Part shown: one piece after another, positions 4,105 through 32,000 of the stretch | Numbering within the stretch: the stretch's first letter is position 1 | Layout of the letters: every line of letters begins with the position of its first letter | NCBI RefSeq assembly: GCF_001306055.1 | Contig: NZ_LGHJ01000017.1 | Location: 243,516 to 275,515 of the forward strand | DNA: 32,000 bases | Source: Bellilinea caldifistulae | GTDB lineage: Bacteria; Chloroflexota; Anaerolineae; Anaerolineales; Anaerolineaceae | Reading direction: 5' to 3' | Notes under the pieces: generated by a model | What the model was told of the DNA's origin: nothing | The model's database searches: none | Seen by the model: only the letters and a program-made list of their open reading frames with translations | Program-made: the position numbers and the translations under genes

Positions 4105-4143
4105 TTGCATGGCGAAACAAATCGGAATTGTTTGGGAGCGAAA

Positions 4144-4765: not shown

Positions 4766-4811
4766 AAGGGTACGCTTGTGGTAAGGTAGCGGAAGGGTAC
4801 GCTTGTAATAT
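4766..4811 (+). promoter_or_regulatory. Direct repeat AAGGGTACGCTTGT x2 with a -10-like TAATAT
   Basis: Identical 14-mers occur at 4766-4779 and 4793-4806. The first lies within the palindrome CACAAG-ggtacg-CTTGTG. The second abuts TAATAT (4806-4811), about 18 nt before ATG 4829. Confidence 0.4.
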
Positions 4812-4828
4812 ACTGACATATCCCGCTT

Positions 4829-8353: not shown

Positions 8354-11008
8354 GTGAAACCTTTACCATTGATTGCAACCAAATTTTTCCCGCTGCCATC
8401 GCCCGGGAAACAATTGAAGCGGCAGGGTCTTATCTCTCGCATGGAAGAGGGTTTGGCGGCGCGCCACCCACTGATTTTGATTTCGGCTCCCGCCGGCTAT
8501 GGGAAAAGTACTCTCGTTGCGGAGTGGCGGGAGAGCACCCAACGAACAATCACCTGGCTTTCTCTGGATGATTCCGATAATGAACCTTCGCGTTTTCTTG
8601 TTTACTTGATTGCAGCACTTCAAAATGCGGACAAATCGATCGGGATGGAATTGATGACCATGCTGGAAGCCAATCAACTCCCGCCTCGCGAAACGATCAT
8701 AGCATTGTTAACTGAAGACTTGTTGGCTTCTAGGAATTCGTTGGTGTGCGTATTAGATGACTTCCAGGTGATCCAGGACCCCAATGTCCTCGACATTCTG
8801 CAAGACCTCATCGTTCATCCCCTTCCGTTACAATTCGCCATTGTCACCCGGGAAGATCCCGCCCTGCCTTTGGGTCGCTTGCGCGCAAACGACCGGTTAA
8901 CCGAGATCCGCGCTTTGGATTTACGCTTTACGAAGGAAGAAACGGCAGCATTCTTTCGAGAGGTGATGAACATTCCACTTACCGAGCGTGACCTTTCGCT
9001 TTTGCTGGAACGCACCGAAGGTTGGGTGGCGGGGCTTCAGCTGGCTGGTCTTTCCATGCAGGGAGGAAAAGACCCATCTGAGGTAATTGCCTCCCTGAGC
9101 GGGAATAACCGCCATATTCTCAGTTATCTCACCGAGGAAGTTCTCAAGCAACAAGAAACTTCCGTACAGGAATTTCTTCTATATACCTCGATCCTCTCAA
9201 AATTTAATGCGGATCTATGTAATGCCGTTACCCAACGAAGTGATTCGGCTGTCCTGCTGGAAGCAATGCTGGCTTCCAACCTCTTCTTGATCCCATTGGA
9301 TGACGAAGGATTCTGGTATCGTTACCACCATCTTTTTGCGGAATTGCTTTTCAGTTATCTGCTCCGTTCCCAGCCAGGCCTGCTGAAAGAATTACATCAT
9401 CGCGCCGCAGAGTGGTTTGAGAGCCAATCCATGCCAGCGGAAGCTATCGACCACGCTCTGGCTGCAAGAGATTTCGCCCGCGCTGCGACCCTGCTTGAAA
9501 TAAATACCTGGACATTGTTGAATCAAGGATATGTTCGCCGTATCGAAGCCTGGATGCAATCCCTGCCTGTCGAGTGGCGTACCCAAAGCCCACGGACAAA
9601 CCTCAGCTTTGCCTGGATGTATCTCCTGCGGGGAAATTTCATCAAAGTAGTACCCCATCTCCAGGAGGCTGAAACTGCGCTGGAGAACGCACCGGAGGCA
9701 GATGACTTGAGAGCAGAGTGCCATGCATTGAGAGCTAACCTCTTACAATCCCAGGGTGAGATTCCTGCCGCAATTGAAAACGCCAAAGAGGCTATAAAGA
9801 TCGTCTCTCCGGGAAATGTTCGCCTGTTAGGGTTGGCGAATCTGGGATTGGGAGCAGGGTATCGACAAGCGGTGCAGTTTGATCTGGCAGTAAATGCCCT
9901 GCAGCAAGCAATTCGTTTCAGCCGTGAATCAGGCGACTCTGTCACGGGTGCATTAGCAGCCACGCATCTCATCCTGATGAGTCTCCAGCATGGGCGATTG
10001 AATCTTGCAGAAGCAGTGTCTTCGCAGATGATCGAACTAATGGAGTGCATCGGGGAGGCGGTGCCACCCATCATCGGCGCAATCTATGGGGCGTTAGGGT
10101 TAGTCTATTACGAGCGAAATCAGATCGAGCAGGCGCGTGACCATTATTTACGGGGAATTCATTAAGGAACCTTTCTCGGACATCATGCCTCCCTGGTCTA
10201 TACAAAACTCAATTTTGCTCGCTTGTTAATGGCTGAAGATAATTTCATTGACGCGAAAAAGAATCTGCAAGATGCCGAGGTATTGGTCCAGGCAGGTGCC
10301 CCAGACTGGTTGAGACCCGGTCTGATTGCGCATCAGGTTCAATATTTTCTTGCAACCGGCAATTTGCCGGAAGCAGAAGCAATATTACGGCAGAGTGGCG
10401 TCACACCAGACGGGCGAATCACTCATGCCACAGATGAGATTTATCTTGCTTTTCTACGCATCAAGTTGACGCGTGGAAAAGAAGCAGACCTCCGTGAAGG
10501 AGCAGAACTTGCGGGGAGGATTCTCACACTAGCAGAAAGTGGCCAACGGAACAAAACAACCATATTGGCTTCCATGTTGGGAGCTTTGTTTCACGAACGA
10601 TTAGGAGATACAAGATCTGCCTCTATGTGGCTCGAACATGCACTGGTATTAGCTGAACCTGAAGGATATGTACGCCTTTTTGTGGACGAGGGAATGGAAA
10701 TTGTTGCATTGCTAAAGCGATTAACACCGACGGATTATATTCGGACCCTGCTGGCGGCGTTCCCTGCGGTAGAGAGATCTGTCGTTAGACCTCGGCCGGT
10801 AGATGGAATCATCGAACCACTCAGTGAGCGTGAAGTGGAAGTATTGCGATTGTTGGCGCAAGGGATGAAATATGCCGAGATTGCAGAGTATTTGTTCGTG
10901 AGTATGAATACAGTACGTTTTCACGTCAAGAGCATTTACGGAAAGCTAAATGTCGATAAACGGGTTAAAGCGGTTGAGCGGGCAAGGGAACTAAAACTGA
11001 TCGAGTAA
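8354..11008 (+). pseudogene. MalT/LAL-type large ATP-binding LuxR-family regulator interrupted by one in-frame TAA
   Basis: The N-terminus LIATKF.. and Walker A SAPAGYGKST are followed by a long helical-repeat region. The C-terminal LuxR HTH reads LSEREVEVLRLLAQGMKYAEIAEYLFVSMNTVRFHVKSIYGKL. ORFs 8354..10165 and 10223..11008 are in the same frame. Only TAA 10163-10165 separates them (..YLRGIH*GTFLGHH..). Confidence 0.8.
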
Positions 11009-16073: not shown

Positions 16074-17243
16074 ATGACTCACATTTTGAAATGCCACGAC
16101 AATATAGCCAAAAATCTTGTGCGCGGAGAGAATTGTTATCTATACGATGATCAGGGAAGGCGTTACATCGATTTTGAATCGGGAATTTGGTGTACAGTTC
16201 TCGGTCACAGCCACCCACGGATCAGCCAGGTTGTTGCAAAGCAGGCTGCAACATTAATGCATTTGGGAACTCGTTATCCAAATTCTATTACCGAAGACGC
16301 AGCTTTGGCTGTGTTGGGTATTGTTGGGCTGGATAATGGTAAGTGCATGTTTCTGAGTTCGGGCAGTGAGGCTGTTGAGTTTGGTGCTCAAACAATCCGA
16401 AAAGTGACCGGTAAAAACCTTTTATTGACTTTTTCTAATTCCTATCTGGCAGCTTATGGATCAGCCGGAAGAAAAAATATTGATGAATGGTATCTTTTCG
16501 ATTGGGATTCAGACTCAGAATCAAATCAATCCCTGATTCAAATTCCATTTGAGCACATTGGCGGTTTTATTTTTGAGCCTGGAGGCAGCGGTTCGGGATA
16601 TGTCCGGTTTCCACCGCAACCTGTGGTCACCAAAATTATTCAAAAAATCCGTGAGGCAGGCGGCCTCGTCATGTCAAATGAAGTCACAACTGGGATGGGG
16701 CGAACAGGAAAGTGGTTTGGTTTTCAGCATTATGATTTTCAGCCTGATATTGTTGCTCTTGGAAAAGGTCTTGGTAATGGCTATCCAGTCAGCGCAATTG
16801 CTATGAGCATGGATGTGGCCAAAAAACTTGAGGACAGTGGGTTACGATATGCTCAATCCCATCAAAATGACCCATTGGGTTGCGCCGTGGCAAAGGAAGT
16901 CATCGCTGTTCTGCGCGACGAAAGCCTGATTGAACATGGTGCAGCGCTCGGAAAATATTTTTTGGATAGATTGCAAACTTTGGTCGATGAGTTTGCCATT
17001 GTAAAACAAGCGCGTGGTCGCGGAATGTTGTTGGGATTGGCATTTTACCCGAATGAAAGATTCTCTGCTGAAACAGCCTTTCATGCTTTGCTGGAACAAG
17101 GTTTACTTGTTGGATGTTATCCAGGTGGAAATATGTTACGTTTTGACCCTGCTCTGGTCATTGAAAAACAATGTATTAACCGTCTTTTTGACTGTCTTGA
17201 AAAAGTTTTACAGGGACTCAAGCCCCAACCGTCTTTAGGATAA
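16074..17243 (+). CDS. Class-III (fold type I) PLP-dependent aminotransferase family protein, atypical active-site motifs
   Basis: Family strings are LGHSHP, SSGSEAVE, NEVTTGMGRTGKWFGFQHY and ALGKGLGNGYP (Schiff-base Lys, aa 231). The usual DEV Asp is Asn (aa 202, AAT 16677-16679). RBS GAGGAG lies upstream. Confidence 0.85.
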   Translation: MTHILKCHDNIAKNLVRGENCYLYDDQGRRYIDFESGIWCTVLGHSHPRISQVVAKQAATLMHLGTRYPNSITEDAALAVLGIVGLDNGKCMFLSSGSEAVEFGAQTIRKVTGKNLLLTFSNSYLAAYGSAGRKNIDEWYLFDWDSDSESNQSLIQIPFEHIGGFIFEPGGSGSGYVRFPPQPVVTKIIQKIREAGGLVMSNEVTTGMGRTGKWFGFQHYDFQPDIVALGKGLGNGYPVSAIAMSMDVAKKLEDSGLRYAQSHQNDPLGCAVAKEVIAVLRDESLIEHGAALGKYFLDRLQTLVDEFAIVKQARGRGMLLGLAFYPNERFSAETAFHALLEQGLLVGCYPGGNMLRFDPALVIEKQCINRLFDCLEKVLQGLKPQPSLG

Positions 17244-17755
17244 TGCGCGAAGAAAGAAGCTATGCTGTCATGAGTCAATCGTTGAATTTTTCTCCTGCCC
17301 TTGTCCAATACCTGCCTGAAACCTGTACCTTGCTTCAGTCTGCCAACCTGGTCGTTCACCCCACCGTCGTACGGGTAGTTCTGCATGGTTCGCGCGGCCT
17401 GGGAGGCGGCGCTCGTCCAGATTCAGATATTGACCTGAGTCTGATTGTGGATTTGCCTGTCAACTTGGAAGCAACGCAACTTGAGCCGCTTTTGCATGTT
17501 GTTTTCCAAACCACGTTCAACGCCTGGCAATCTGAGATTGAGCCAGATCTGGCTGTGATATTTAAGACTCGCGCCTGCGCGCTGGACTGTTTCACTCAAA
17601 CAAACTGGCAGGATGATATGTGTTCCATCGGTGGATACGACTGTTTTGGCTTGTACAAAGTCCAAAAAGGTTTCAGCGGTCTTGTTACTCACGCCGGGAT
17701 TGAGATCAGGCGCATGGTCCCCTGCCTGGAAATCTGGAGACGAGCCATCTGTTGA
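17243..17755 (+). CDS. Pol-beta-superfamily nucleotidyltransferase domain protein
   Basis: The TAATG overlap suggests coupling to the aminotransferase gene. The motif LHGSRGLGGGARPDSDIDLSLIV matches hG[GS]..D.D. Confidence 0.7.
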   Translation: MREERSYAVMSQSLNFSPALVQYLPETCTLLQSANLVVHPTVVRVVLHGSRGLGGGARPDSDIDLSLIVDLPVNLEATQLEPLLHVVFQTTFNAWQSEIEPDLAVIFKTRACALDCFTQTNWQDDMCSIGGYDCFGLYKVQKGFSGLVTHAGIEIRRMVPCLEIWRRAIC

Positions 17756-19582: not shown

Positions 19583-20343
19583 ATCCAAGTTATCCGATTC
19601 TCGAAAACGATACCGTTTCCGCGTCCAAACTCGAACCATCGCGCATCATTGCGCCGCGCGATGTACCTGAGCACTGCGTGATTTCGTTTTTTCGCGAAGT
19701 GAATGAAAAAGTGACAACTGAAAAGCAAGCCAAAGTCGCTGTCGCCAACCGCTGGGAGGATGGTGAACATCCCCTTTACGAAATCGAGCACCGCGGCCGG
19801 CGGCTGGCATTTTTTCACCCCGGCGTGGGCGCGCCGCTTGCCGCCGGATTGCTGGAAGAGGTCATTGCATTCGGCTGCAAGAGATTTGTCGTGATTGGTG
19901 GCGCGGGGGTGTTGGAGAAGGGACTGACGGTCGGCAAACTCATTCTGGTCGAGAGCGCCGTGCGGGATGAAGGCGTTTCATATCACTATCTCGCGCCGGA
20001 CCGCGAAATTCAGGCGCCGCAACCGGCACTGGCAGCGATTCGCGCCGCGCTCGAAACGCGCCGCGTTCCGTTTGTGAGCGGCAAGACCTGGACAACCGAT
20101 GCCCCCTACCGGGAAACCCAGGCGGTGATCGCTGCCCGCCGCGCCGAGGGTTGCCTGACGGTCGAGATGGAAGCCGCCGCGCTGCTGGCGGTGGCGCAAT
20201 TCAGAAAGGTTTTGCTGGGGCAAATCCTGTATGCGGGCGATGACCTGAGCGGTGAATACTGGGACAATCGCGGCTGGCAATCGCGCCGTGAAGTGCGGGA
20301 GAGTCTGTTCTGGCTGGCCGCCGATGCCTGTTTGGAGATGTGA
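19579..20343 (+). CDS. Nucleoside phosphorylase family-1 (PNP/UDP-like) protein
   Basis: The strings FFHPGVGAPLAA, VVIGGAG, TWTTDAPYRET and the VEMEAAAL motif are characteristic of the PNP_UDP_1 family. Confidence 0.8.
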   Translation: MNPSYPILENDTVSASKLEPSRIIAPRDVPEHCVISFFREVNEKVTTEKQAKVAVANRWEDGEHPLYEIEHRGRRLAFFHPGVGAPLAAGLLEEVIAFGCKRFVVIGGAGVLEKGLTVGKLILVESAVRDEGVSYHYLAPDREIQAPQPALAAIRAALETRRVPFVSGKTWTTDAPYRETQAVIAARRAEGCLTVEMEAAALLAVAQFRKVLLGQILYAGDDLSGEYWDNRGWQSRREVRESLFWLAADACLEM

Positions 20344-21182
20344 ACGTGAAACATAAATACACTGTCCTCATCCTTTTAATCACGGCGGTTGGGATGATCT
20401 TCATCACGCGCGCCTGGCTGGCTGTTCACACGGCTGCGCCGCGCACTTTTGAAATTTTTGATATCCTGACGGTGGTCAGTGCGGTTATTCTTTTATTGAA
20501 AGGCGGCCGCAGCTTGCGGTGGGGAGATTGGGCGGCCGCTCTGGTCCTGGGCGCAGTGGTTACCGCAGGAATGCTGTTTGCCACGCTATTCTCCCCCTAT
20601 CCTTTCTTGGGGTTCATTAAAAGCAACGCCGAACAGGCTGTCATTCGCGGAACATTCACAACCCTGGCGGCATTGGGCGGGCTGGTGGTGATGCGCCGGG
20701 GCGGACCGGTGCAATTTCACGCGGCTGCGGGCAACTGGCGGGCGATAAGCAAAGGCATATTGTTGGGACTGGTGATTGGTTTACCGTTGGCCGTTCTCAA
20801 TGTTTTTGCCTTAAAGTTCACGCAGGGGCATCCCATTCAATGGCAAAGTCCCGGTGCGGCGCTGCTGGACGCCCTGCAGCCCGGGATTGGAGAGGAAGTC
20901 ATCTACCGCTTTGCTTTGTGGGGTTTGCTGTGGCTGATGCTGCGAAAAAGCCTTCCGGAAAAGGCACACGGGATATCCGGGCTGCTGGCGATGCTGATCC
21001 ACAATTATTCGCACTTCGACGACCTGTTTATCCAATCGCCGCTGACGGCGCTGGGGTTAGGCGCCGTGCTGGCGCTGGTGTGGGGGTTACCGCCCCTCCT
21101 CCTTGCCCGCCGGCGCGGACTTGAATCCGCCATTGGATTCCATTGGATTCAAGATGCGGCCCGTTTTCTGGCCGGTTATTAG
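20340..21182 (+). CDS. CPBP-family intramembrane glutamic endopeptidase (CAAX protease/Abi-like)
   Basis: The start is GTG 20340. Motif 1 is GIGEEVIYRFALWG (EExxxR), followed by LIHNYSHF and GFHWIQDA (HxxxD). The protein is multi-TM. Confidence 0.8.
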   Translation: MNVKHKYTVLILLITAVGMIFITRAWLAVHTAAPRTFEIFDILTVVSAVILLLKGGRSLRWGDWAAALVLGAVVTAGMLFATLFSPYPFLGFIKSNAEQAVIRGTFTTLAALGGLVVMRRGGPVQFHAAAGNWRAISKGILLGLVIGLPLAVLNVFALKFTQGHPIQWQSPGAALLDALQPGIGEEVIYRFALWGLLWLMLRKSLPEKAHGISGLLAMLIHNYSHFDDLFIQSPLTALGLGAVLALVWGLPPLLLARRRGLESAIGFHWIQDAARFLAGY

Positions 21183-22153: not shown

Positions 22154-22618
22154 TTAATTATTTGTGTATTGTACTGATCTAAAATTACATCCATAGACCG
22201 ACTGCTTCCCCACCATAGTCCAGGATAATCTTTCAATCGTATTCCACCAAATGCCAGGCATTTCATACCACTTAGCATTTGCGACTTCCTTAGGGATATC
22301 TGGATCTGGGGCGGTGCCTCGCGCAAGAGCTCCATCCGGATGGATACCAACCTCCGTATAAACAAATGAATAAATTGGACCCAGGGTGGCTAAAGATAAC
22401 ATCATACCCCACCCGCACCGGGAAGGTTCTGCCGTTTTTGCGGCATCAATCCGATCAGCAACGAATTCAAAGTAAGTCATCCCCTTCGGAGCTTCAGGAA
22501 CCTGCATAGGCTGGTTTCCCTTGTAGGCAACGAATAAAATACTGGAGCAAATCGCCAGGATGACAGTAGTTTTGACAACCCATCCAATCAACTTAAGAAT
22601 AACTACGATGAATTTCAT
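22154..22618 (-). CDS. N-terminally anchored membrane protein, unknown family (intact paralog of 6320..6840)
   Basis: AAGGAGAAA is the RBS before the ATG. One TM helix is followed by a roughly 115-aa domain. The gene starts 7 nt after the stop of the RHH gene. Confidence 0.7.
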   Translation of the reverse strand: MKFIVVILKLIGWVVKTTVILAICSSILFVAYKGNQPMQVPEAPKGMTYFEFVADRIDAAKTAEPSRCGWGMMLSLATLGPIYSFVYTEVGIHPDGALARGTAPDPDIPKEVANAKWYEMPGIWWNTIERLSWTMVGKQSVYGCNFRSVQYTNN

Positions 22619-22625
22619 TTTCTCC

Positions 22626-22847
22626 TTAATTCTCTTGATTCATCTGATACTGATCCTCAGGTCGGGCACCTTCTCGTAGGACCCGGTTATAACGAATCTC
22701 CTCGCGATACATTCGATCAAGAGCAACCTCAATCACATCGCTTTCACTCCGTCCCATAACGCTTGCCATCGCTCTTAATTGACTCACGCCTTCTGGGCTA
22801 ATTCGAAAAGATCGTACTGGTTTTTTCGCGGAATTTGTTTTCGGCAT
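22626..22847 (-). CDS. Ribbon-helix-helix (CopG/Arc-type) DNA-binding protein
   Basis: RSFRISPEGVSQLRAMASVMGRSESDVIEVALDRMY fits the RHH strand-helix-helix pattern. The product is 73 aa. Confidence 0.75.
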   Translation of the reverse strand: MPKTNSAKKPVRSFRISPEGVSQLRAMASVMGRSESDVIEVALDRMYREEIRYNRVLREGARPEDQYQMNQEN

Positions 22848-22878
22848 GCTCGTTTTCCTTATCGGTTAGTTTATCTAT

Positions 22879-22907
22879 AATGTAATACTCTAGTATTTCT
22901 TTGTCAA
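22879..22907 (-). promoter_or_regulatory. Candidate promoter of the RHH operon with an embedded palindrome
   Basis: On the minus strand, TTGACA (22907-22902) is followed by a 17-nt spacer and TACATT (22884-22879). The palindrome AATACT-ct-AGTATT (22884-22897) lies within the spacer. Confidence 0.35.
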
Positions 22908-23008
22908 GTTAATTTCCACTTTTTTCCTAATTTCGTCAAATATGTCCCCCTAGGATAGGTGCTTTCTTCTTGCTATGATTAGAGTCACAACCAAATATCT
23001 GTTCGGTC

Positions 23009-23117
23009 GCTGATAATCATCAGCTGTTCCAAAGAATCCTTGGAGCGACCATCAGCTTCTTCCCTATCTACACAACTTACGTGCGTGTAAATATGCGTTG
23101 AGATCTAGATGGTCGCT
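23009..23117. promoter_or_regulatory. Palindrome and distant inverted repeat in the divergent intergenic region
   Basis: GCTGAT-aatc-ATCAGC spans 23009-23024. The 10-bp perfect inverted repeat AGCGACCATC (23044-23053) / GATGGTCGCT (23108-23117) is separated by 54 nt. A further GGTCGC is at 23005-23010. Confidence 0.35.
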
Positions 23118-23165
23118 TTTGTTTTAACTTACTTTCGAACCCGTTAACCGGAAAAGGAGAAAAAA

Positions 23166-23726
23166 TTGAAAGAAATTCCAGTCTCAAAACGTAATCTGAT
23201 CATTGCCGTCATCTTGGCAGTTGTCGTTGCTTTAGGTATCCTGGTGATCGAAAACTGGCCACTTCATACGGAGCAAGGTTCAGCAGCAGCAACCAACGAA
23301 GATCGTCTGGTTTCTACTGCAGCGGTCAATGCTATCGAGCAGGTCTTCCAGGTGAACTATCAGGAAGGAAAAGAAGCCTGGCTTGAGCGTATCTGCGAGG
23401 TAAGCACTCCCGCTGGATGTGAGCTGTTTTCGGCCGGCGCAGACCGTATGTGGGAAAAATACGTGGATGCCAAATCTGTGGTCACAGCTGCCTCTCAGGC
23501 AGCAGAAAAAGTAGCAGACAATGGTTTTGAGCAAGTCTGGAAGATGACCATCACGCTATCTTCTCCCCTACCAGGCAGCAATAAAACCCAGGATACAGCA
23601 TATGTTGTTCTCGCGAAAACAGAAAGTGGTTGGAAGTTTGATCGTTTCCTGATGGAAGAAGAAATCAATGCCATTCTCGCTCGGGGAAAAACTCCCACCA
23701 CAACTGTAGAAGAAGGAAAGAAGTAG
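23166..23726 (+). CDS. Membrane-anchored protein with a roughly 150-aa ectodomain, unknown family
   Basis: AAGGAG (23154-23159) is followed by a 6-nt spacer and TTG 23166. The TM helix is NLIIAVILAVVVALGILVI. The C-terminal part ends in beta-rich ..AYVVLAKTESGWKFDRF. Confidence 0.65.
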   Translation: MKEIPVSKRNLIIAVILAVVVALGILVIENWPLHTEQGSAAATNEDRLVSTAAVNAIEQVFQVNYQEGKEAWLERICEVSTPAGCELFSAGADRMWEKYVDAKSVVTAASQAAEKVADNGFEQVWKMTITLSSPLPGSNKTQDTAYVVLAKTESGWKFDRFLMEEEINAILARGKTPTTTVEEGKK

Positions 23727-25018
23727 TGAAAAGAATCTTCCTGATCATTGTCGTTATGACCTTGCTCATACCATCTGCTGTTTATGCTCAGGGCACTGAT
23801 CCCTGGTCAGAAGTTTTTCAGCCGGATGGAAATCTGAATCCTGATTTGATTGATCTGGGAGTTACCACAGATCACCCCGATTGGATGTCAATTGAACTGC
23901 CTTTTGGCCAGTCCATTGATCTTGATGCTAATTATCACCGCTATCAAACGCCTAGCGGGAATATCGTCGTCTTACCCTCTGCCTCGACGTTATTTTTTAT
24001 GGCCATGAACTCCCAAGAAAGCGGTTTGACCGGCTCTTATGGATCACTGGGAAATGGTTACGGCAGCCTGATCTCTTTTCTTGGGCTTGTTGCCGGCGAT
24101 AATCTGGATTGGAGCAAGGTACAGGCGGAACATCCAGAGTACACCAGCCCGGATCAATTCTGGGGAGCGGTTCTCAATGGGCAGCAAGATGTATGGACCT
24201 ATTTCTCCGGGTGGGGATTCATCACAACCCTGCTTCAAATGACTTGGAATGATGGCGCTCTTCGCTCATTGTATTTGTTGTATCTGAATGGTTCACAAAA
24301 CTGTGCGGCCATTCCAGGGGGGTGCTCGGGAATTGTCACCCCACCTCCTCCCCCAAGGGAGTGTCCTGATCCAACGGTTTCTATACAACAACCTGTCCTC
24401 GTTATTCAAAAAACTGCGCCGAACAATCCCCTGGTTGTGGGACAAGATACCGAAAATCGCCGCGGTGCAGATATCCAGGTCAGGGTGACAGTTCCTCCAG
24501 TGATCTTCACCTGGTATGAGCCGATTTATGAAGAAAGAGATGTTTGCCGCTCAGCCAGTTCCGGAGAAACCGCCAATTGTAATACCGGAGCTGGATCAGC
24601 TATGAATGATGGTGTTTCAGATACAGAAATGGTATTCAAGGAATGCCGGACACATGTAGAACATCTACCGGATGCGGTAGCATCACTGCAAGCTACTGCA
24701 GCATTGGATGGTGCCAGCCAGGATTGGATCACAGGTAGATTAGGGCAAACCCATTATGAAGCCTTCGTCCACCAGGCAAATTTCACCCTGATTCCCGGAA
24801 TTGGTTCATGGACAGGCGGATGTGATGGCGGCGGCACCTGCACTGCTACTGGCCAGGCACTCCGTGTTCCATTTGCAGATCCAGGAACCTTCAACTTGCG
24901 AATGGACGTAGTGACCACGGGGACTCGCTTCCGCGGAGTTCCAATCACCCAACCGAGGCGAGTAGGGATTGATGGAACGATGCAAGTATATGTGGCTCTT
25001 CCGGCGCTGGTGCCTTAA
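23726..25018 (+). CDS. Secreted two-domain protein, Cys-rich C-terminal half, unknown family
   Basis: GTG 23726 overlaps the upstream stop (TAGTG). The signal peptide is MKRIFLIIVVMTLLIPSAVYA/QG. A PPPPPRECPDP linker precedes a Cys-rich C-terminal half that contains most of the protein's Cys residues. Confidence 0.7.
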   Translation: MKRIFLIIVVMTLLIPSAVYAQGTDPWSEVFQPDGNLNPDLIDLGVTTDHPDWMSIELPFGQSIDLDANYHRYQTPSGNIVVLPSASTLFFMAMNSQESGLTGSYGSLGNGYGSLISFLGLVAGDNLDWSKVQAEHPEYTSPDQFWGAVLNGQQDVWTYFSGWGFITTLLQMTWNDGALRSLYLLYLNGSQNCAAIPGGCSGIVTPPPPPRECPDPTVSIQQPVLVIQKTAPNNPLVVGQDTENRRGADIQVRVTVPPVIFTWYEPIYEERDVCRSASSGETANCNTGAGSAMNDGVSDTEMVFKECRTHVEHLPDAVASLQATAALDGASQDWITGRLGQTHYEAFVHQANFTLIPGIGSWTGGCDGGGTCTATGQALRVPFADPGTFNLRMDVVTTGTRFRGVPITQPRRVGIDGTMQVYVALPALVP

Positions 25019-25027
25019 AAGGTCAAA

Positions 25028-25147
25028 GTGCAGATTTTATCGATTGCGGTCGGTGTGTTGCTGACAGTCGTCCTGGGTTTCATGGCCGTCATCTATTTAC
25101 TACTGGTGATTGGGTTGTGGTGTCCACGAAACGATTATGACAAGTAA
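25028..25147 (+). CDS. 39-aa single-TM peptide (below the ORF-track cutoff)
   Basis: From GTG 25028 the product reads VQILSIAVGVLLTVVLGFMAVIYLLLVIGLWCPRNDYDK, ending at TAA 25145-25147. It exactly fills the gap between two operon genes. The RBS is weak. Confidence 0.4.
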   Translation: MQILSIAVGVLLTVVLGFMAVIYLLLVIGLWCPRNDYDK

Positions 25148-25161
25148 GGAGGCATTGGTTC

Positions 25162-25845
25162 ATGACAGATTATTTTGTCGTCTTTGGAGATTTTCTCACT
25201 GCTCTGCCTACTTACCTGTTGAACGGCGTCCTCGCAACCGTTTACTGGCTTGGCGAATCTGGAGCTGCTCTAGTAAGTATTCTTTGCGCAGGGTTGATCA
25301 TCCGTTTCGTGGATCAACGTGTGCAATCCAGAGCAGCTTTCCGACCAGGACGAAGTGGGCGGGAGGCTGCTACTCCGGATTTATACACAGCTCAAATCAC
25401 AACGGCGATTATTCTGGTGCTTTGGGTAATCAGCCAATGGGGGATGGGAGCACCGGTTCCCTGGCTGGGTGCAGCAATGTGGATCGCTGGCACAGTCATC
25501 CTTTTACTGGTGCACATGCAGGAACATACCCTTTTGTGGAATATGAAATCGGGAATTGCGATTTATTCCCTGGCCGTCATCGGAAGCCGGCTCTACCTGG
25601 CATACACCGCTCAATTATCAGCAGATCAATGGGCTGCACTGATAGGGACATCTGAAAGCGCATCAGCAGTGATTGCGAATACACGCGGAAATGTAACTAC
25701 GATTATTCTTTGGGCTTTATGGTTGGTGATCCCGTTAGGTTATTTTGCCATGTTGCTGCAGCAAGTTCTGATCAATCCGATGTCGTTGGTCAATCCATTG
25801 GCAGGCGCCAGCGAGTTGATCAATCGCTATCGAACCAGAAGATAG
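25162..25845 (+). CDS. Polytopic membrane protein, unknown family
   Basis: AAGGAGG is the RBS. The 227-aa product has about 6 hydrophobic helices. No motif recognised. Confidence 0.7.
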   Translation: MTDYFVVFGDFLTALPTYLLNGVLATVYWLGESGAALVSILCAGLIIRFVDQRVQSRAAFRPGRSGREAATPDLYTAQITTAIILVLWVISQWGMGAPVPWLGAAMWIAGTVILLLVHMQEHTLLWNMKSGIAIYSLAVIGSRLYLAYTAQLSADQWAALIGTSESASAVIANTRGNVTTIILWALWLVIPLGYFAMLLQQVLINPMSLVNPLAGASELINRYRTRR

Positions 25846-25997
25846 GGTGATAGATGAAACCAGCACACAAAATCGTGGGCTTGCTTGATTTATCCCAAAG
25901 GGACGCTTCGCGTACTCAACCTTTTTAGGTGAGAGTCTTATGAACGTCGGAAATTCTTGATTAACGCCAGATTCTATTTCAACGATTGGAGGTCAAT

Positions 25998-26351
25998 ATG
26001 TCACAACTGATGGATTTGCTGCGCGGACCTGCTTTAGGCGTGATTGTCATGATCATCCTGATGGCAGGCGTTCTCATCATCACTGCATTTGCGGCGCTGA
26101 TTGCCCAGATGAGTCTCTTGTTCCGGCTTCGACCTTGGAATACTTCCGAAAAGAGAAGTGAAAAAGGGAATGAAGGTTACCCACAAGAAACATTTGAGCA
26201 ACGTTCCGCAACTCGTGAAGGCCAGCGAGCATCATCTCCCCATCGCCAGAGTTCACCATCGGAACATCCCCGCAGGGGACAGGTGGTGGTTGTCGAACCA
26301 AATACGAATGAGGTGGTTGATGCAATCTGGTGGGAAACAGTGAAGCAATAG
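25998..26351 (+). CDS. Single-TM protein with a disordered basic/Ser-Pro-rich tail
   Basis: GGAGG precedes ATG 25998 (the track start is TTG 25986). The TM helix is ALGVIVMIILMAGVLIITAFAALIA. A low-complexity stretch follows (EKRSEKGNEG...SSPHRQSSPSEHPRRG). Confidence 0.65.
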   Translation: MSQLMDLLRGPALGVIVMIILMAGVLIITAFAALIAQMSLLFRLRPWNTSEKRSEKGNEGYPQETFEQRSATREGQRASSPHRQSSPSEHPRRGQVVVVEPNTNEVVDAIWWETVKQ

Positions 26352-26389
26352 CAATCCAGGGCTTCTCTTGCGCAAGTAAGAGCAGCCTC

Positions 26390-27697
26390 ATGAATTTACC
26401 AGCTGGTCAAGTTGGCGAATTGATGAGGCAGAACGCCAAGTACGGAGAAAAGAGAACGATGATTATTGGAAAACTGACCGAAAAAATACCCTGGCTGAGA
26501 ACGAAGGACTCTCTATCCATTCCAAATGACCTGGAAGTGGAAGGCACAGAGCTACATTTCAACGACCGAAATGAGCTGGACTATCTGGTCTTTCGTGTCA
26601 AAGAGCGGGAAGGCCCGCGGGAATATCAGGGATACCGGGCGGTCCGGCTGCTGCAATTACGCTACATCTCTCTGGAAGCTCGCCGGGATGCCGGGCTGCT
26701 ACAAAAGATGCTTACGGTCTCGCGTGGTTTGTATGGCGCTCAAGTGGATCTGGTTTATCTGGCTGCCGGCGTTTTTAAGAACCCCAATGTTGGAATTGTT
26801 CAATGCTATGGAGTCGCTGCGTTTTCGCCAAAGAAAGATGAAGCTATCCAGCGTTCTTTACGTGATCTGTCTGCCTTACGAGCCGGATTGGTGGGTGCTT
26901 ACCGTCAAATCCGCCTTGAACCACTTTCAACTGAAGTGGCTCAATGGTTAGCGCGTGCTCTGGAGCAGATGCCTTATGCCATTGTGGCTGTCGGGCATCC
27001 AGATCCACGTGAAAACGCCCACGGGGGTGATTCTTCGATGCGTGACCCATTAGTGTCTGGAAGTCAGGGTGCACAACAATATTCCATTCAACAGAGTGAA
27101 CTGCTCTTTCGCGGTATGAGCAGCCTGAAAGAAGAATTCTTGTTGATGCTGCTCACAAATCATGTTCGTCTTGAAGATATTACTCGAATGTTGGCCGGTA
27201 TGTTGGAAGACACCTCCGTTTACGCTTCCCGTCAGTTGGGAACCCGGGCTGTTTCGTTTGGAATCAGCCCGCCGGCCATTTTGACTGGGGGACTTGCTGA
27301 AAACGCATCCAGGTCTTATGGCACAAACCATTCGAGCGGCGTCACCCAGGGTGAAGCTGCCACAGATGGCGTCGCAAATTCAGAAGGCCAGGCGCACACC
27401 ACGGGTCATGCCAGCACTCGCGGTTGGGCGCACACGGTTGGAATCTCCGAAACCGATACGATTGGTTTATCTTCCACGGTTGGAACTGCAGTCAGTCAAG
27501 GGACAGCTCATACCGAAGGAACAGCAGTAACCGATGGAACGTCCCACTCAGATTCGTCCGGTGTAGCGAACTCCCATACGGATAGCTCTTCCTATGGCGT
27601 GAATGGCGGTGTGAGTGGGAGCATTGCTCCGGCCGGCGTAGGTTTATCGGCTAACGTGTTAGCATATGGCAACCGGCCAGCCGGGGCACCCTGCTGA
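26390..27697 (+). CDS. Large soluble protein with a C-terminal Gly/Ala/Ser/Thr/His periodic repeat, unknown family
   Basis: The start is ATG 26390 or GTG 26330 (unresolved). There is no Walker or other catalytic motif. Repeats occupy about 27320-27649. The stop at 27695-27697 lies in the GC-rich sequence that may already belong to the IS110 element, so the C-terminus may be non-native. Confidence 0.7.
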   Translation: MNLPAGQVGELMRQNAKYGEKRTMIIGKLTEKIPWLRTKDSLSIPNDLEVEGTELHFNDRNELDYLVFRVKEREGPREYQGYRAVRLLQLRYISLEARRDAGLLQKMLTVSRGLYGAQVDLVYLAAGVFKNPNVGIVQCYGVAAFSPKKDEAIQRSLRDLSALRAGLVGAYRQIRLEPLSTEVAQWLARALEQMPYAIVAVGHPDPRENAHGGDSSMRDPLVSGSQGAQQYSIQQSELLFRGMSSLKEEFLLMLLTNHVRLEDITRMLAGMLEDTSVYASRQLGTRAVSFGISPPAILTGGLAENASRSYGTNHSSGVTQGEAATDGVANSEGQAHTTGHASTRGWAHTVGISETDTIGLSSTVGTAVSQGTAHTEGTAVTDGTSHSDSSGVANSHTDSSSYGVNGGVSGSIAPAGVGLSANVLAYGNRPAGAPC

Positions 27698-27712
27698 GTG
27701 CGGGGCGCCTTT

Positions 27713-27991
27713 CGCATTCCAGGTTTTAGGGGTAGTACCCCTGGTGGTTGAGTGAACGGGGACGCTGCCCCCGGGTGCGTGGCGTTTGGGCAGGCCGTCT
27801 TCGCGTATGGGAAGTCCTTGGACATGCCCGCTCTCGCGTTTGGCCGCCCGTTCGATTCCGCTCACCTGAGATCGGTCAGGCTACCACCCTGATCCAAGCT
27901 CGAAACTGTGTGTGATGCCATGCCCAATCTGGAACGCGCCCGGACCGGCTGGCCGGTGCTTGCCAGCACACATCCAAAGGAGGCTGGACAT
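27713..27991 (+). ncRNA. Candidate bridge (seek) RNA region in the IS110 left arm
   Basis: This is a long structured non-coding arm upstream of the recombinase. GC hairpins are GGGG-tagta-CCCC (27729-27741) and GGGG-acgctg-CCCC (27758-27771). The assignment rests on known IS110 biology. The RNA ends are not determined. Confidence 0.35.
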
Positions 27992-29221
27992 ATGCTGCCA
28001 TCTGATTCTACACCAAAGCGCAGCGAAGCTGCGCACCGTTTCGTGGGACTGGACGTCCACAAGCACTACCTGGTGGCCATCGGCATCGACCGCCAGGGGA
28101 CCCAGGTCTTTGGACCTCACCACGTGCCCATCCCCAGGCTGGAAGAGTGGATCGCCAAGCACCTCACCCGTCAGGACGCGGTGGTACTGGAGATGACTAC
28201 CAACACCTGGAAGATGCACGACCTCTTGGCTCCGCACGTGTTTTCGGTGACAGTGGTGCATCCGCCGCACGTGGCGCTGATTGTGCGCGCCCAGGTCAAG
28301 ACGGACAAGAAGGCTGCCCTCACCCTGGCGCAGCTCCACGCTGCCGGACTCTTGCCGGGTGTCTGGGTGCCGCCTCAGGAGGTGCGTGAGCTGCGGGCGC
28401 TGGTTGCCCAACGCCACAAGATGGTGCGCCTGGGAGCGACCACCAAGAACCGCCTGCACGCCCTGCTGCATGCCAGGCACATCCAACCCCCAGAAGGTAC
28501 AAAACTGTTCGATCCCGAGACGCGCTCCTGGTGGGAGAACTTGCCACTCTCAGCGCTGGAGCTGTACCGCCTGCAATCCGACCTGGACGCGCTGGACTTC
28601 GCCAAAGAGCAGGTAAAACGCCTGGAGCGCTGCCTGGCCGAGTTCGCCGCCAGAGACCCGCGCATGCCGCTGTTGGTGCAGTTGCCGGGCATCGGCCTGA
28701 TCAACGGCGTGACCATCCTGGCCGCCATCGGTGACATCACTCGCTTTCCGGATGCCAAAAGCCTGGTGGGTTATGCCGGGCTGGGCGCACGGGTTCACCT
28801 GAGCGGAAATCTGCACGTCACCGGGCGCATCACCAAAGCTGGAAGGCGTGACCTGCGCCGGTCGATGGTGGAAGCCGCCCATCACGCGGTCGAGTGCAGT
28901 CCGCATTGGAAGGCCGAGTTCGAGCGGTTGGAGAAACGCAAGGGGCGCTCCAAGTCGGTGGTGGCGGTGGCCAGGATGCTGCTGGTTGCCCTGTGGCACA
29001 TCCTCACTAAGGCAGAAGCCGACCGGCACGCCGCACCGCAGCAGGTGGCGACTTCGCTCTTTACCCTGGCGCACCGGGTGCGGGTGCAGAACTTGCCGGA
29101 TGGGCAAACTGCCTTGCAGTTCACCCGCAACCAGCTCGATCGCCTGGTCATTGGGCAAGAGGTGACCCACATCCCGTGGGGCTCGAAGCGCTTCAAGCTG
29201 CCGCCGAGTAAGTTGAAGTAG
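27992..29221 (+). CDS. IS110-family transposase/recombinase (DEDD RuvC-like N-domain plus Tnp domain)
   Basis: AAGGAGG is followed by 8 nt and ATG 27992. Family strings are FVGLDVHKHY, VVLEMTTNTW, VKTDKKAAL, LVQLPGIGLINGVTILAAIGDITRF and GRITKAGRRDLR. Confidence 0.9.
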   Translation: MLPSDSTPKRSEAAHRFVGLDVHKHYLVAIGIDRQGTQVFGPHHVPIPRLEEWIAKHLTRQDAVVLEMTTNTWKMHDLLAPHVFSVTVVHPPHVALIVRAQVKTDKKAALTLAQLHAAGLLPGVWVPPQEVRELRALVAQRHKMVRLGATTKNRLHALLHARHIQPPEGTKLFDPETRSWWENLPLSALELYRLQSDLDALDFAKEQVKRLERCLAEFAARDPRMPLLVQLPGIGLINGVTILAAIGDITRFPDAKSLVGYAGLGARVHLSGNLHVTGRITKAGRRDLRRSMVEAAHHAVECSPHWKAEFERLEKRKGRSKSVVAVARMLLVALWHILTKAEADRHAAPQQVATSLFTLAHRVRVQNLPDGQTALQFTRNQLDRLVIGQEVTHIPWGSKRFKLPPSKLK

Positions 29222-29480
29222 CGCGCCTGGGTGACAAACGAAACTCGCTTGCGCGTTTCGCCCTCTCGCGAAGCGTTAGGTTCACGCGCGCCTTTTTATG
29301 AAATTGTTAAAGTTCCGATCGAGATTGAGTTTATCGCTTTCTGATCCATTGCCAGGGCAAGAAGAAAACGCAAAATATTAGCTATTCTTGTTGGCTGGGA
29401 GCTGGTATAATCCAGACAACCCCCAGAGAGCGGAACAGGCCCATTCCGATGGCTTGTTTCGTTTTCATTTAGGGAATGGC

Positions 29481-30107
29481 CTATTTGTCATGTTCGAATT
29501 TGTCCAGGTAGACGTCTATCTCCACTTCAACTAAAGGAATTAGTTGTACATTGGTGACTTTGGATTTTTTTAGGAGATTGCGCACTTTCTGGGTGACGAC
29601 AATTCCATGATTGCGAATCAGGAAAATATCACTGCCGTCCCAATCGGCTTCGTCGAAATATAAACCTCTATATACCTGAAAGGGTTCGCCCCCTGGCACA
29701 GCCTGACGGGTAAGAATCTGGCTGCGGCTGCGATCTCTCTGACATTCGCTGCCCGTCACGGCAAAACCATGATAGCCGGGCAGCGGCTCGCCTTTCCGTC
29801 CGTGTACCTCTACCGGATATGTCGCCCAGCCGGTGATGTTATTCATTCGCAAGAGTTCTACTACTCGCTCTGATATGCAGACCAGCGGTATTAGACCCGA
29901 CCAGAGAAAATCGGTGACCTGCCCACCCCGATAAGCGCCCAATCTCAAGGGAGTATCCAGTTTCAACCTCCCGCGAAACAGTTCTATCGCCTGCCCTTTG
30001 GTAAGCCAGTCACTATAGCCTTCGTCACTCAACCGGAAAGGCCTTGACGCCAGTGGATCGTCCAGACGATATAATTTGTTGTAATCAAGGATTGCCAAAG
30101 TGGACAT
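29481..30107 (-). CDS. Immunity-like protein cognate to the AHH toxin cassette
   Basis: It lies immediately downstream of, and overlaps, the toxin 3' end. AAGGAG is followed by a 10-nt spacer and ATG 30107 (alternative ATGs at 30116 and 30140). The family was not assigned. The role is inferred from position. Confidence 0.6.
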   Translation of the reverse strand: MSTLAILDYNKLYRLDDPLASRPFRLSDEGYSDWLTKGQAIELFRGRLKLDTPLRLGAYRGGQVTDFLWSGLIPLVCISERVVELLRMNNITGWATYPVEVHGRKGEPLPGYHGFAVTGSECQRDRSRSQILTRQAVPGGEPFQVYRGLYFDEADWDGSDIFLIRNHGIVVTQKVRNLLKKSKVTNVQLIPLVEVEIDVYLDKFEHDK

Positions 30108-31101
30108 CGAATCCATACTCCTTAGACAACCGTCTGGCAAAGTTCAGGATTTCTTCTTTTGTGCGTTCCGACTTAAAGAATTCTTTCCACTTCGCATTGT
30201 AAGCATAACTCCATCCTCGATGGGCCGTCGCATCCACCCAACTGCCAAACACAGGATCATAGATATTGATGCCTGCTTTTACAAAATCCTGGGCAAACTC
30301 CTGTGGCAAGACGTGGTGGGCTTCCATCCCCACAATATCATCCAGCCCTTTTCCTGTCAACCGCTACAAGTTCTCGCGGAAGTTCCAGCTGGCGAAGGAC
30401 TTGAAAGCCTGTTCACCCGCTTCCTCGCCTGCCTCTTTGCCCAGCGTGACCAGCCCCCTCCGGGCAAGATCGTCCAACGGAAGCGAGACGGGCAGCAAAT
30501 CATCCGGTTCGGCGGCTTCAAATCCTGCAGTCAGCGCCAGGTTTACAGCAGCAGCATCTTTGGCTTCCTGGGAAGCATTCGGATCCGCCAATACCCGCCC
30601 TGATTGCCAGGCGTCATACGCCGTCCAGCCATAATCGATAACTTTCAGCGCTACAATCGCAATGGCAATAATCGCAGGAATTGGTATATGGCCATCTGGG
30701 TCAATATACTTGACAGGGTTGCCATAACTGTAGGCATACCGATCCCACGCCAGCGGGTTGCCTGCCCCCGGCACGATACTATCCGGCTGGATGAAGCGTC
30801 CCAGCAGGGGGTCGTAGAAACGGGTGCGGTAGTCATACAGGCTCAAGGCGGCTTCCTCGCGTTGGGCGGTGAATTTGTAGCGCACGGAATACTCACCTGT
30901 AGTATAGCGCAATTCGCCCCAAGGTTTGTAGAGATAGCGAGAGCGGATTGTGCCGCCGATGTCGGTGACTACGCTGGTCGAACCCAGATGATCACCGAAC
31001 AGGAAATAGACACTGCTGGTTGTGGCAGTGTATTCCCTCACAGCAATCCGCTGGCTGCCGATGAATATGTAGTTGCGCCAGGTCTGCCAGGCTGAGGGCA
31101 T
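30085..31101 (-). pseudogene. Orphan Rhs core-end plus C-terminal AHH (HNH/EndoVII-superfamily) nuclease toxin, split by in-frame TAG
   Basis: The Rhs core end reads FGDHLGS..YKPWGE..YDYRTRFYDPLLGRFIQPDS..YSYGNPVKYIDPDGH. The linker then runs into TAG (30366-30364): ..WNFRENL*RLTGKGLDDIVGMEAHHVLPQEF. This second part is in the same frame and carries the AHH motif. The large N-terminal Rhs repeat region is absent. Confidence 0.8.
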
Positions 31102-31327
31102 CTAACCCCAGTGCAGCCCAGTCTCCCCAGCCAACGGCACAGCCGCGCCTGGCCTTATCGGCAATCATGTAAAGGTCAAAGCCCAACATGGCTACATCGA
31201 AGAGCGTCTCGATGAACTCCCCGCTGGAGTCGTACCAAAAACCATCATGAAATAGGACTATGGGGAGGTTTTGTATAAATTTATAAAGGTGCTTGGATTA
31301 TTTTAAGTGAGAAAGTAATTGAGAAAG

Positions 31328-31822
31328 TTATGACTTGAAATTTCGGGGAGTAAACCTGTTGTAAAGGATCAGGTCTTTATAAGGGAAAGGATATTCGCCG
31401 GTTTCAATGCGATGCATCACATCATAAGGACTCCAAACCATCAGGTATTCTTTGGTTTTGTATTCATCGGGTAAGATAGGACCAAGGCGTATGGATTTCT
31501 CTCCGTCCCAGTAATACCAGATGGTGGCTTCACCAGTTTTTTGATTATATAAGGTAGATACAAACCCCGGATATTGAAGATTCTCAACCCTTCTTGATCC
31601 AATGATGGTCCAAAGTCCTGTCCTTACTGCGGCAAATAGTCCCGTAATTACTGGAGGAAATAATTCACCGGAATTTACAATTAAGTCCAGATCTGGCTTC
31701 TCAATTCCAATGTGTTTGAATACTTTAATGATAGGCCCCATTCTATCTCTAATGATGTGTTGAGCGTATGCTTTTCTTTGATTGGATAAAGAAATTTCAA
31801 CAATATTACCAATACGGATCAT
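31328..31822 (-). CDS. Immunity-like protein (pattern resembles Imm26-type), probably cognate to a toxin upstream beyond or at the window edge
   Basis: GAGGAACGAG precedes ATG 31822 (the track start is TTG 31846). The pattern IGNIVEISLSNQRKAYAQHIIRD..GPIIKVF...LFPPVITGL...GLWTIIG is typical of small polymorphic-toxin immunity proteins. The family call is tentative. Confidence 0.55.
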   Translation of the reverse strand: MIRIGNIVEISLSNQRKAYAQHIIRDRMGPIIKVFKHIGIEKPDLDLIVNSGELFPPVITGLFAAVRTGLWTIIGSRRVENLQYPGFVSTLYNQKTGEATIWYYWDGEKSIRLGPILPDEYKTKEYLMVWSPYDVMHRIETGEYPFPYKDLILYNRFTPRNFKS

Positions 31823-32000
31823 GACTCGTTCCTCATTTGTGCCCAATGATTCTTAGAATCTCCAACCCACGCGGATTACGCAACCTTTTTTCTGTAAATT
31901 CGAGTCAGAAATATCCATCGTTCTTTAACAATCAAATGACTTGCCAGAGCAATAATGTTTGCCGATCTGCCACTCTTCTGAGATCTCCATCAAGAGGGCT

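Follow-up and report, generated by a model that had tools for sequence, protein, structure and literature searches.

What is the function of six closely packed genes of Bellilinea caldifistulae, g1 to g6, five of which encode envelope proteins without recognizable domains? The genes lie in a 32,000-nucleotide (nt) stretch of contig NZ_LGHJ01000017.1 (positions 243,516 to 275,515), referred to here as the window, and an earlier note on it had taken them for a self-contained operon encoding a dedicated envelope machine. Comparison with relatives indicates that the window instead holds the 5' part of a module of at least nine genes, cut by an IS110-family insertion sequence (IS), and that the sixth gene is the front of a much longer one, whose product is a predicted HerA/FtsK-type ATPase. 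Intact copies of the module belong to an integrative, plasmid-like, previously undescribed element that has recently spread between genera of Anaerolineae, where, as we tentatively propose, it may serve conjugation-like DNA transfer. Coordinates given without a locus number are those of the whole window, and L-numbers (L001, L002 and so on) denote fetched loci of relatives.

The list of open reading frames (ORFs) agrees with the earlier note on six co-directional genes, all on the plus strand and with g1 to g5 intact; g1 and g2 share 1 nt, and the following gaps are 9, 14 and 140 nt. The sixth ORF as listed (26330-27697, 455 amino acids, aa) runs into the insertion sequence as far as 27697. 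Nucleotide similarity to every relative ends at 27657/27658, which cuts g6 at codon ~443: the window reads ...GGCTAACGT / GTTAGCATATGG... across this junction, and Leptolinea reads on as ...GGCTAACGT / AGGCGGCAATGC... The final 13 codons and the stop of the window ORF are IS-derived, and no continuation of g6 was found in the window beyond the IS. The transposase matches PF01548 (DEDD_Tnp_IS110, E 2.5e-17) and PF02371 (Transposase_20, E 2.9e-21), both over the cut-offs, and the GC content is 0.62-0.64 within the IS110 element versus ~0.48-0.52 around it. The earlier note was right that an IS110 element is present; rather than bounding the operon, however, it interrupts it. Neither a target duplication nor a remainder of g6 follows the element, and a deletion therefore accompanied or followed the insertion. 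The window keeps the genes from m154 to the truncated g6 (22155-27657, 5.5 kb), while replication, partition and integration modules, the attachment (att) site and the Tad genes described below are absent from its 32 kb. The window copy is a disabled remnant: an IS110 element has inserted, and the genes farther downstream have been lost. Since g1 to g5 are still full-length ORFs, no shorter or longer than their counterparts in intact elements, the gene was probably broken recently.

Features of the window (TM, transmembrane; positions as in the 32,000-nt stretch)
Feature	Position	Strand	Description
m154	22154..22618	-	154-aa protein, N-terminal TM segment; left-most gene of the conserved block
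RHH	22626..22847	-	73-aa Arc/CopG-like ribbon-helix-helix regulator, divergent from g1
RHH/g1 intergenic region	22848..23165		conserved together with the block; divergent
g1	23166..23726	+	186 aa, bitopic membrane protein, 150-aa ectodomain, two invariant Cys
g2	23726..25018	+	430 aa, secreted two-domain protein
g3	25028..25147	+	39-aa hydrophobic membrane peptide
g4	25162..25845	+	227-aa polytopic membrane protein
g5	25986..26351	+	121 aa, bitopic membrane protein, disordered basic tail
g6'	26330..27657	+	5' part of ATPase gene: N-domain and part of Ser/Thr/Gly-rich linker
IS110-family insertion sequence	27658..29290 (right end approximate)	+	transposase 27908-29221
C-5 cytosine methyltransferase	3214-4104		left part of window (1-22000)
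PIN-like ORF	5887-6318		left part of window; resembles gene adjoining the L002 cluster
DDE transposase	7033-7773		left part of window
MalT-like AAA/TPR regulator	8354-10165		left part of window
Rce1/CPBP-like membrane protease	20340-21182		left part of window
Imm11 immunity protein	29481-30140	-	Rhs cassette region
91-aa ORF	30085-30360	-	Rhs cassette region
Rhs C-terminal core with toxin tail	30364-31101	-	245 aa
Further ORF	31328-31846	-	172 aa

The window g6 matches the NCBIfam model NF033849 (ser_rich_anae_1, 'serine-rich protein') with an E-value of 8.5e-121 over model positions 1-360 of 1163. To belong to this family, a whole protein must reach 650 bits against the model of 1163 positions; the window copy, with 404.2 bits, stays below this threshold because it is truncated, and an intact homologue (L016:10001-13624) scores 1429.9 bits. 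Among 18 diverse copies the full-length homologues have 1140-1269 aa, and the start of g6 is likely the ATG at 26459, as in homologues. The full-length architecture comprises a ~350-aa N-domain, a 250-300-aa Ser/Thr/Gly-rich linker and a single ATPase domain, with no FHA domain. What the earlier note described as a soluble product of 435-455 aa is thus the ~443-codon front of a ~1200-aa protein, and the tail that it called beta-solenoid-like is the low-complexity linker, which AlphaFold2 leaves unstructured. Foldseek matches of the N-domain model were of generic alpha+beta type, none at E <= 1e-3, and were treated as uninformative.

Beyond the linker, the homologues have a further domain, which is conserved and includes a Walker A motif, e.g. 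GDTGFGKS; the consensus GD(T/S)GFGK(S/T) is found in 18/18 full-length sequences. The earlier statement that no Walker A is present therefore holds for the broken window copy, in which the ATPase domain is deleted, and fails for intact copies. The C-terminal domain matches solved HerA/DUF87 ATPases in the Protein Data Bank (PDB) with E 2.8e-5 as a single sequence and 2.7e-7 as a profile. Pfam matches of the full-length members are all sub-threshold, to DUF87 in 17/18, to AAA_10 in 16/18 (best E 1.4e-5 for the C-terminal domain, under the 27.5-bit cut-off) and to TrwB_AAD_bind in 4/18. We conclude that in intact copies the C-terminal half of g6 is a predicted P-loop ATPase of the HerA/FtsK superfamily. 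Relatives of g6 fall into 267 clusters at 50% identity. The protein belongs to the NF033849 family, the name of which refers to composition only and tells nothing of function, ATPase domain or gene context.

Hydropathy scans agree with the topologies given for g1 to g5 in the earlier note, and its view of them as envelope proteins without recognizable domains was borne out by family, PDB and structure searches; scans against Pfam, NCBIfam and PHROG gave nothing credible above noise. The g1 protein has one N-terminal TM segment (residues 3-35), and its alignment shows invariant C77, C85 and four Trp; its profile found no match among PDB sequences and sub-threshold noise only in Pfam. The g2 protein combines a signal-peptide-like N-terminus, a PPPPP stretch and eight Cys, all at residue 193 or beyond. 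Its 301 homologues are without exception unnamed or 'hypothetical', and the cluster at ~98% identity to the window copy has 874 member sequences. AlphaFold2 modelled g2 with a mean predicted local distance difference test (pLDDT) score of 77.6, reaching 80-97 in the C-domain (217-425). In this model g2 consists of a novel N-domain, a Pro-rich linker and a Cys-containing Ig-like beta-sandwich C-domain, for which Foldseek against PDB and BFVD returned generic Ig-like/adhesin folds only, none at E <= 1e-3. The g3 peptide has a single hydrophobic segment, and its ORF is kept in position and length in the closer relatives. The best-conserved member of the module is g4, with several TM segments, 48% mean column identity and 36 invariant residues in the alignment, and no match of its profile among PDB sequences; it is a candidate channel or platform. 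The idea that g4 is a divergent TadB/TadC platform was ruled out by an hhalign probability of 0.6%. Finally, g5 has one TM segment (residues 7-48) and a basic tail, and phmmer found it in closer relatives only.

The divergent operon reported on the other strand is also present, with both the regulator gene RHH and m154 in place. The regulator has a PHROG Arc-like repressor match (E 5.3e-5) and a weak match to Pfam RHH_1, and m154 has no match in Pfam, NCBIfam or PADLOC. The intergenic region between RHH and g1 probably holds the promoter and operator. No RNA families were found within the window.

A scan of one genome per species yielded 120 relatives of g6, nearly all from Anaerolineae. The order [m154, RHH divergent] g1 g2 (g3) g4 (g5) g6 recurs in over 50 loci of Anaerolineae, so that the case of genes never co-occurring outside this genome, on which the earlier note would have given up its reading, does not apply. 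Upstream of g6, g1, g2 and g4 are found together in 51 of 54 loci; an m154 homologue keeps its place in nearly all loci, and the regulator adjoins it in most. Downstream of g6, 41 of 49 loci have the three Tad pilus genes identified by Pfam as CpaB/RcpC (SAF plus RcpC), TadZ/CpaE-like (AAA_31) and CpaF/TadA-type (T2SSE). TadB and TadC often come next, followed farther on by an ICMT/PEMT-like membrane protein and an A24 prepilin peptidase (Peptidase_A24), and L002 also has Flp, TadE and TadG. The best NCBIfam match of the CpaF homologue is 'TadA family conjugal transfer-associated ATPase', followed by TrbB and VirB11. A distant relative with 32% identity keeps SSB, Flp, TadE, TadG, the g6-like gene and ParM together, with a PKD/Big adhesin of 1671 aa encoded between TadG and the latter's g6-like neighbour. 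The proposed dedicated envelope machine is hence upheld as a conserved multi-gene set, but not as a self-contained one of six genes. Homology of several members to a well-described machine, which the earlier note had named as telling against it, was found for g6 (HerA/FtsK superfamily) and for the Tad neighbours that the window lacks, and not for g1 to g5.

Two further observations concern individual relatives. In L003, L049, L051 and L052 (at ~19.8-21.3 kb) a second ParA-like and a second CpaB-like gene follow TadC and the PEMT-like gene, and L003 also has a second T2SSE ATPase; some elements therefore have two secretion-ATPase sets. In L001 and L003, both from ENA contigs of the ERZ250395xx series, g1, g2, g6 and CpaF are broken into many short ORFs, which are probably long-read assembly frameshift errors rather than pseudogenes.

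The mobility of this gene block is apparent from its distribution. The window segment 22155-27657 is 93-96% identical in nt sequence to Levilinea saccharolytica, Flexilinea flocculi and Leptolinea sp. HRD-7, the last represented by a complete genome, and several metagenome-assembled genomes match it equally well; against other genera the shared block starts at 22155-22179. The cultured genera share among themselves ~11.4 kb at ~95% nt identity amid unrelated flanks, and several loci agree once more, at ~95%, in the TadB segment past a gap that varies. This degree of identity across cultured genera indicates that the element is actively moving. Several genomes hold two to three diverged copies.

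Upstream of the module is a conserved set that comprises a DnaA_N protein (580-730 aa), a protein similar to single-stranded DNA-binding protein (SSB), u187 (with a TM segment) and u467 (420-470 aa). Farther upstream, 80 fetched metagenomic loci with the DnaA_N protein show a putative partition-partner gene, ParA and y213 (~200 aa), and then a 45-nt sequence, the att core. On the opposite strand we read this sequence as the 3' half of tRNA-Met, with its anticodon loop (CTCATAA), T-arm and acceptor. This core is found with T-stem variants in 24 loci, and the T-stem changes are compensatory between loci. A tyrosine integrase (Phage_integrase, E 4.9e-36) is contiguous with att and y213 in ~15 loci, and before it are located HTH_17 proteins, a DnaB-like helicase, a ParM-like protein and m155, a paralogue of m154. 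Unrelated DNA lies to the left of att in ~11 loci, and in L115 it consists, by reading, of ordinary chromosomal genes. In L139 the 3' end of CpaF and cargo are joined straight to integrase-att-y213, and in L144 and L138 the metallophosphoesterase of hotspot 2 (see below) comes first, followed by ParM, DnaB and then integrase-att-y213. The simplest reading of these arrangements is that they show one and the same element, in some loci integrated and in others circular or tandemly repeated.

The intact order begins with att (the tRNA-Met 3' half), y213, ParA, its putative partner, the DnaA_N protein, the SSB-like protein, u187 and u467; it continues with cargo hotspot 1, the divergent m154/RHH pair, g1-g6, CpaB, TadZ, CpaF and cargo hotspot 2; and it ends with either TadB-TadC-ICMT/PEMT-like-prepilin peptidase or ParM-RHH-like-m155-DnaB-HTH, then the tyrosine integrase and att. 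The tyrosine recombinase and tRNA-derived att site typical of tRNA-integrating elements are hence found in the relatives and not in the window fragment. Hotspot 2, the gap between CpaF and TadB, was seen in L006/L010 at 17.3-20.1 kb, with equivalents in L008, L013, L030, L031, L011, L012 and L029. Its cargo, which differs among elements otherwise ~95% identical, includes AbiEi/AbiEii-like pairs, ~470-aa DUF234-like ATPases, a metallophosphoesterase, a nucleotidyltransferase with an IS256 transposase, and an Rhs fragment. The second variable stretch, hotspot 1, is upstream of m154. The backbone protein u467 has a coiled coil and a PD-(D/E)xK-like domain with invariant PD...EVE...K residues. Its C-terminal region aligns with a protein from a distant locus (hhalign 97.6%, E 3.8e-12) that weakly matches Replic_Relax; against PDB, profiles of u467 and of the DnaA_N protein gave coiled-coil noise only. 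A conjugative element of the Tad/HerA kind described from Chloroflexi was sought in the literature without success, and no published description was found of g1-g6, of NF033849 as an ATPase, or of the element.

Several variants of the element were also observed. In L004, L010, L014 and L036 (~2.4-6.6 kb) 4.2 kb are inserted in the RHH-g1 region, equivalent to ~22847-22946; the insert encodes a sigma-70/ECF-like protein (191 aa), a protein of 773 aa and a lipoprotein-like one of 358 aa, and parts the regulator from the operon. An extra tRNA-Met att core replaces ~260 nt between TadZ and CpaF in L036 (~17070-17330), and L090 has two att cores 1.3 kb apart (at 5976 and 7279), which suggests secondary integrations or recombination at att-like sites. 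A few copies (L015, L032, L050, L053, P0024 and P0033) come from bins or records assigned to Clostridiales, Caldisericales, Acidobacteria, delta proteobacterium, Pseudomonas or Delftia, and most likely reflect mis-binning of short contigs rather than transfer beyond Chloroflexota.

We propose that in intact elements g1-g6 and the Tad module may together constitute a conjugation-like DNA-transfer apparatus, a reading to which we give nearly an even chance; the intact family is an integrative and probably self-transmissible element with an unorthodox transfer module. In the proposed mechanism, g3, g4 and g5 would form a membrane complex onto which a hexameric g6 motor would dock, g1 and g2 would be the extracytoplasmic, wall-side parts, and the Tad-type pilus would bring about cell contact. 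Module and pilus would thereby move element DNA from cell to cell without a canonical VirB4/type IV coupling protein (T4CP) type IV secretion system (T4SS) or a known relaxase. The window copy could not perform this function. More tentatively, and with more doubt than belief, we consider that the family might represent a new class of self-transmissible Chloroflexota elements that are independent of VirB4/T4CP and built of g1-g5, a HerA-type motor that has a serine-rich linker (g6) and a Tad-type pilus, the relaxase being replaced by a PD-(D/E)xK-like protein.

A number of observations speak against a transfer apparatus and have to be set beside this proposal. No relaxase, T4CP or VirB4 was detected at curated threshold in the scanned parts of the element, and no homologues of VirB6, VirB8, VirB3, T4CP or relaxase were found in g1-g5 by comparison with Pfam, NCBIfam, PHROG and PDB or in the scanned element parts; the only lead to a relaxase is the weak link of u467 to Replic_Relax and PD-(D/E)xK nucleases. 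The ATPase matches are sub-threshold for all Pfam and NCBIfam families except NF033849, g6 has no TM segment in the hydropathy scan, and its N-domain is modelled by AlphaFold2 with a mean pLDDT of 45.8, residues 68-210 alone reaching moderate confidence. For g1-g5, which have no detectable homologues of known function, the roles given above follow from topology and position alone. The tRNA half was identified by eye; ARAGORN and Rfam neither called the att fragment as a tRNA, as expected since they do not call half tRNAs, nor found a whole tRNA at the site, and an integrase beside an intact tRNA-Met, i.e. the right end of an integrated copy, was not seen directly in the loci. Furthermore, eight loci (L056, L061, L067, L069, L074, L077, L078 and L083) have g1-g2-g4-g6 without adjoining Tad genes; L067 and L069, read in detail, have two small extra genes between g4 and g6. 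The core g1-g6 is therefore separable, usually but not always joined to the Tad module, and the link to the pilus is frequent, not obligatory.

Several known systems share features with the proposed apparatus. Described Anaerolineae Tad clusters have the order pilA-cpaB-cpaE-cpaF-tadB-tadC (PMC4877987; PMC6668835). As in Tad/Flp (type IVc) pilus loci, the module in the relatives precedes CpaB/RcpC, TadZ/CpaE-like, CpaF/TadA-type, TadB/TadC and A24 peptidase genes, and not only L002 but also L165 has Flp, TadE and TadG. In contrast to them, g1-g6 occur in no described Tad locus, a HerA-type ATPase is foreign to Tad, and the window has no CpaF/TadA, TadB/TadC, TadZ/CpaE, CpaB/RcpC, Flp or A24 gene. 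TdtA/ICETh1 transjugation of Thermus thermophilus involves an integrative element with a gene for a HerA/FtsK-superfamily ATPase, which is proposed or has been shown to drive DNA out of the donor (PMC5365140; PMC7767461). Both systems, by description, do without a canonical T4SS and involve type IV filament machinery; g6 differs in its extra 350-aa N-domain and 250-300-aa Ser/Thr/Gly linker, and the element described here carries Tad-type pilus genes itself and resides in monoderm-like filamentous Chloroflexi.

Actinomycete integrative and conjugative elements (AICEs) such as pSAM2 and SLP1 have a tyrosine integrase that inserts into a tRNA gene, replicate on their own and encode an FtsK/HerA-superfamily presumed DNA translocase (PMC3218068). 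The tRNA-targeting integrase, own replication, translocase-type ATPase and filamentous monoderm hosts are features in common, whereas no TraB homologue or clt site was identified here, g1-g5 have no AICE counterparts, and the present element is larger and has ParA, a ParM-like protein, DnaB and a Tad pilus module. The archaeal Ced system, which is chromosomal, imports DNA and has a HerA/VirB4-like ATPase; it acts jointly with Ups pili, which are type IV-like and establish contact between cells (PMC9905601; PMC11823120). They resemble the module in having a polytopic membrane protein, small TM peptides, a HerA/VirB4-like ATPase and a type IV-like pilus; they differ in that g3, g4 and g5 have no detectable homology to CedA, CedA1 and CedA2 and that the module is on a mobile element. 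The likeness to TdtA/ICETh1, AICEs and Ced with Ups is best taken as functional analogy, since no homology of g1-g5 to components of these systems was found.

The observations made on relatives have to be weighed against other readings of the module, some of which revive suggestions of the earlier note. Surface-fibre assembly was one of them and comes near, since Tad/Flp pilus genes normally follow the module. A role of the module in adhesion is a rival reading that we consider rather unlikely. On this reading g1-g6 would be accessories to an adhesive Tad-type pilus or fibre on a mobile 'colonisation island', in which g2 would be an Ig-like adhesin or tip, g1, g3, g4 and g5 would serve as anchor or for export, and g6 would be an assembly ATPase; the element would spread by other means, and the module would serve adhesion or aggregation of the filaments. 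Tad loci are horizontally mobile (the 'widespread colonization island'), which counts in its favor, as do the Tad genes placed directly after g6 in the 41 of 49 loci and the large PKD/Big adhesin of the distant locus. The Ig-like C-domain of g2 weakly resembles the fimbrial adhesins FaeG and FnBPA, although these Foldseek matches are not significant (E > 1e-3), and Anaerolineae Tad clusters are highly transcribed and linked to aggregation (PMC4877987). Such a role would not account for the eight loci that have the g1-g6 core and no adjoining Tad genes, nor for the constant location of the module amid DNA-handling genes (SSB, DnaA_N and the nuclease-like u467). It also leaves the HerA/FtsK-type ATPase unexplained, since to our knowledge known Tad systems need no such ATPase. 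FtsK-family ATPases power type VII secretion systems, and an EssC-like function of g6 in the export of polymorphic toxins (Rhs, WXG/LXG) across the monoderm envelope would fit the Rhs genes beside the cluster in the window, L001, L002 and L029 and the WXG100/LXG-like genes, judged by reading the sequence, upstream in L051. We regard it as improbable: toxin genes are near only ~5 of ~55 loci, in variable cargo positions or flanks, no EssB, EsaA or EccC-type partners were found, and g6 has a single ATPase domain and neither a TM segment nor an FHA domain. The partnership with Rhs toxins suggested earlier appears incidental, as other than in the window Rhs homologues are within 10 kb of the module in only those three of ~55 loci and in variable cargo positions.

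Phage exclusion, the third of the earlier suggestions, would make the module a HerA-based defence or exclusion system carried as cargo of the mobile element. The nearest solved structures and the PADLOC and NCBIfam models for the g6 ATPase are indeed anti-phage HerA proteins, and the element bears other defence-like cargo, AbiE and Abi_2. This similarity, however, is weak and confined to the C-terminal ATPase core, with 20-40 bits against cut-offs of at least 800; no Sir2, DUF4297 or nuclease partner of HerA systems was found, PADLOC is blank for g1, g2, g4, g5, m154, CpaB, TadZ, CpaF and u467, and the module belongs to the conserved backbone and not to the variable hotspots, all of which makes defence very hard to credit. 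An equally slim chance is left to a morphogenesis module of an unrecognized temperate virus or virus-like particle, with g6 as packaging ATPase and g1-g5 as membrane or virion proteins. An integrase, a tRNA att site, a DnaB helicase and an SSB are present in many prophages as well, and the g6 ATPase weakly matches a PHROG annotated as terminase large subunit (E 8.7e-10), but PHROG scans of g1-g5 gave nothing significant, no capsid, portal or tail proteins were detected, and Tad pilus assembly genes are not virion genes. The prophage idea was set aside because a search of 2.9 million viral contigs of IMG/VR yielded no relative of either g2 or the DnaA_N protein.

The surroundings of the remnant in the window were also inspected. 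Its left part, 1-22000, looks like an accessory region. On the right, the minus-strand Rhs C-terminal and Imm11 cassettes described earlier as converging on the operon are present; they occupy 29481-31846 and are orphan cassettes, unlinked to the module in most other genomes. In L051 (Longilinea arvoryzae, 1231-5448) the WXG100-like and LXG-like genes are directly upstream of the m154/RHH pair, and each precedes an ORF of ~210-255 aa, possibly an immunity gene.

For annotation, the present analysis implies that the window locus should not be taken as a working system, and that proteins named 'serine-rich protein' after NF033849 are better regarded as HerA/FtsK-type ATPases. The five families g1-g5, hitherto orphans, can now be placed in a defined gene neighbourhood. 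In anaerobic digesters, activated sludge and sediments, Anaerolineae belong to the core community, and we know of nothing that has been established on how they exchange genes. If the proposed transfer function is true, g1-g6 and the Tad module would amount to a conjugation machinery of a new type, used by filamentous bacteria with a monoderm envelope, and the element may provide a possible vector backbone for a phylum without genetic tools.

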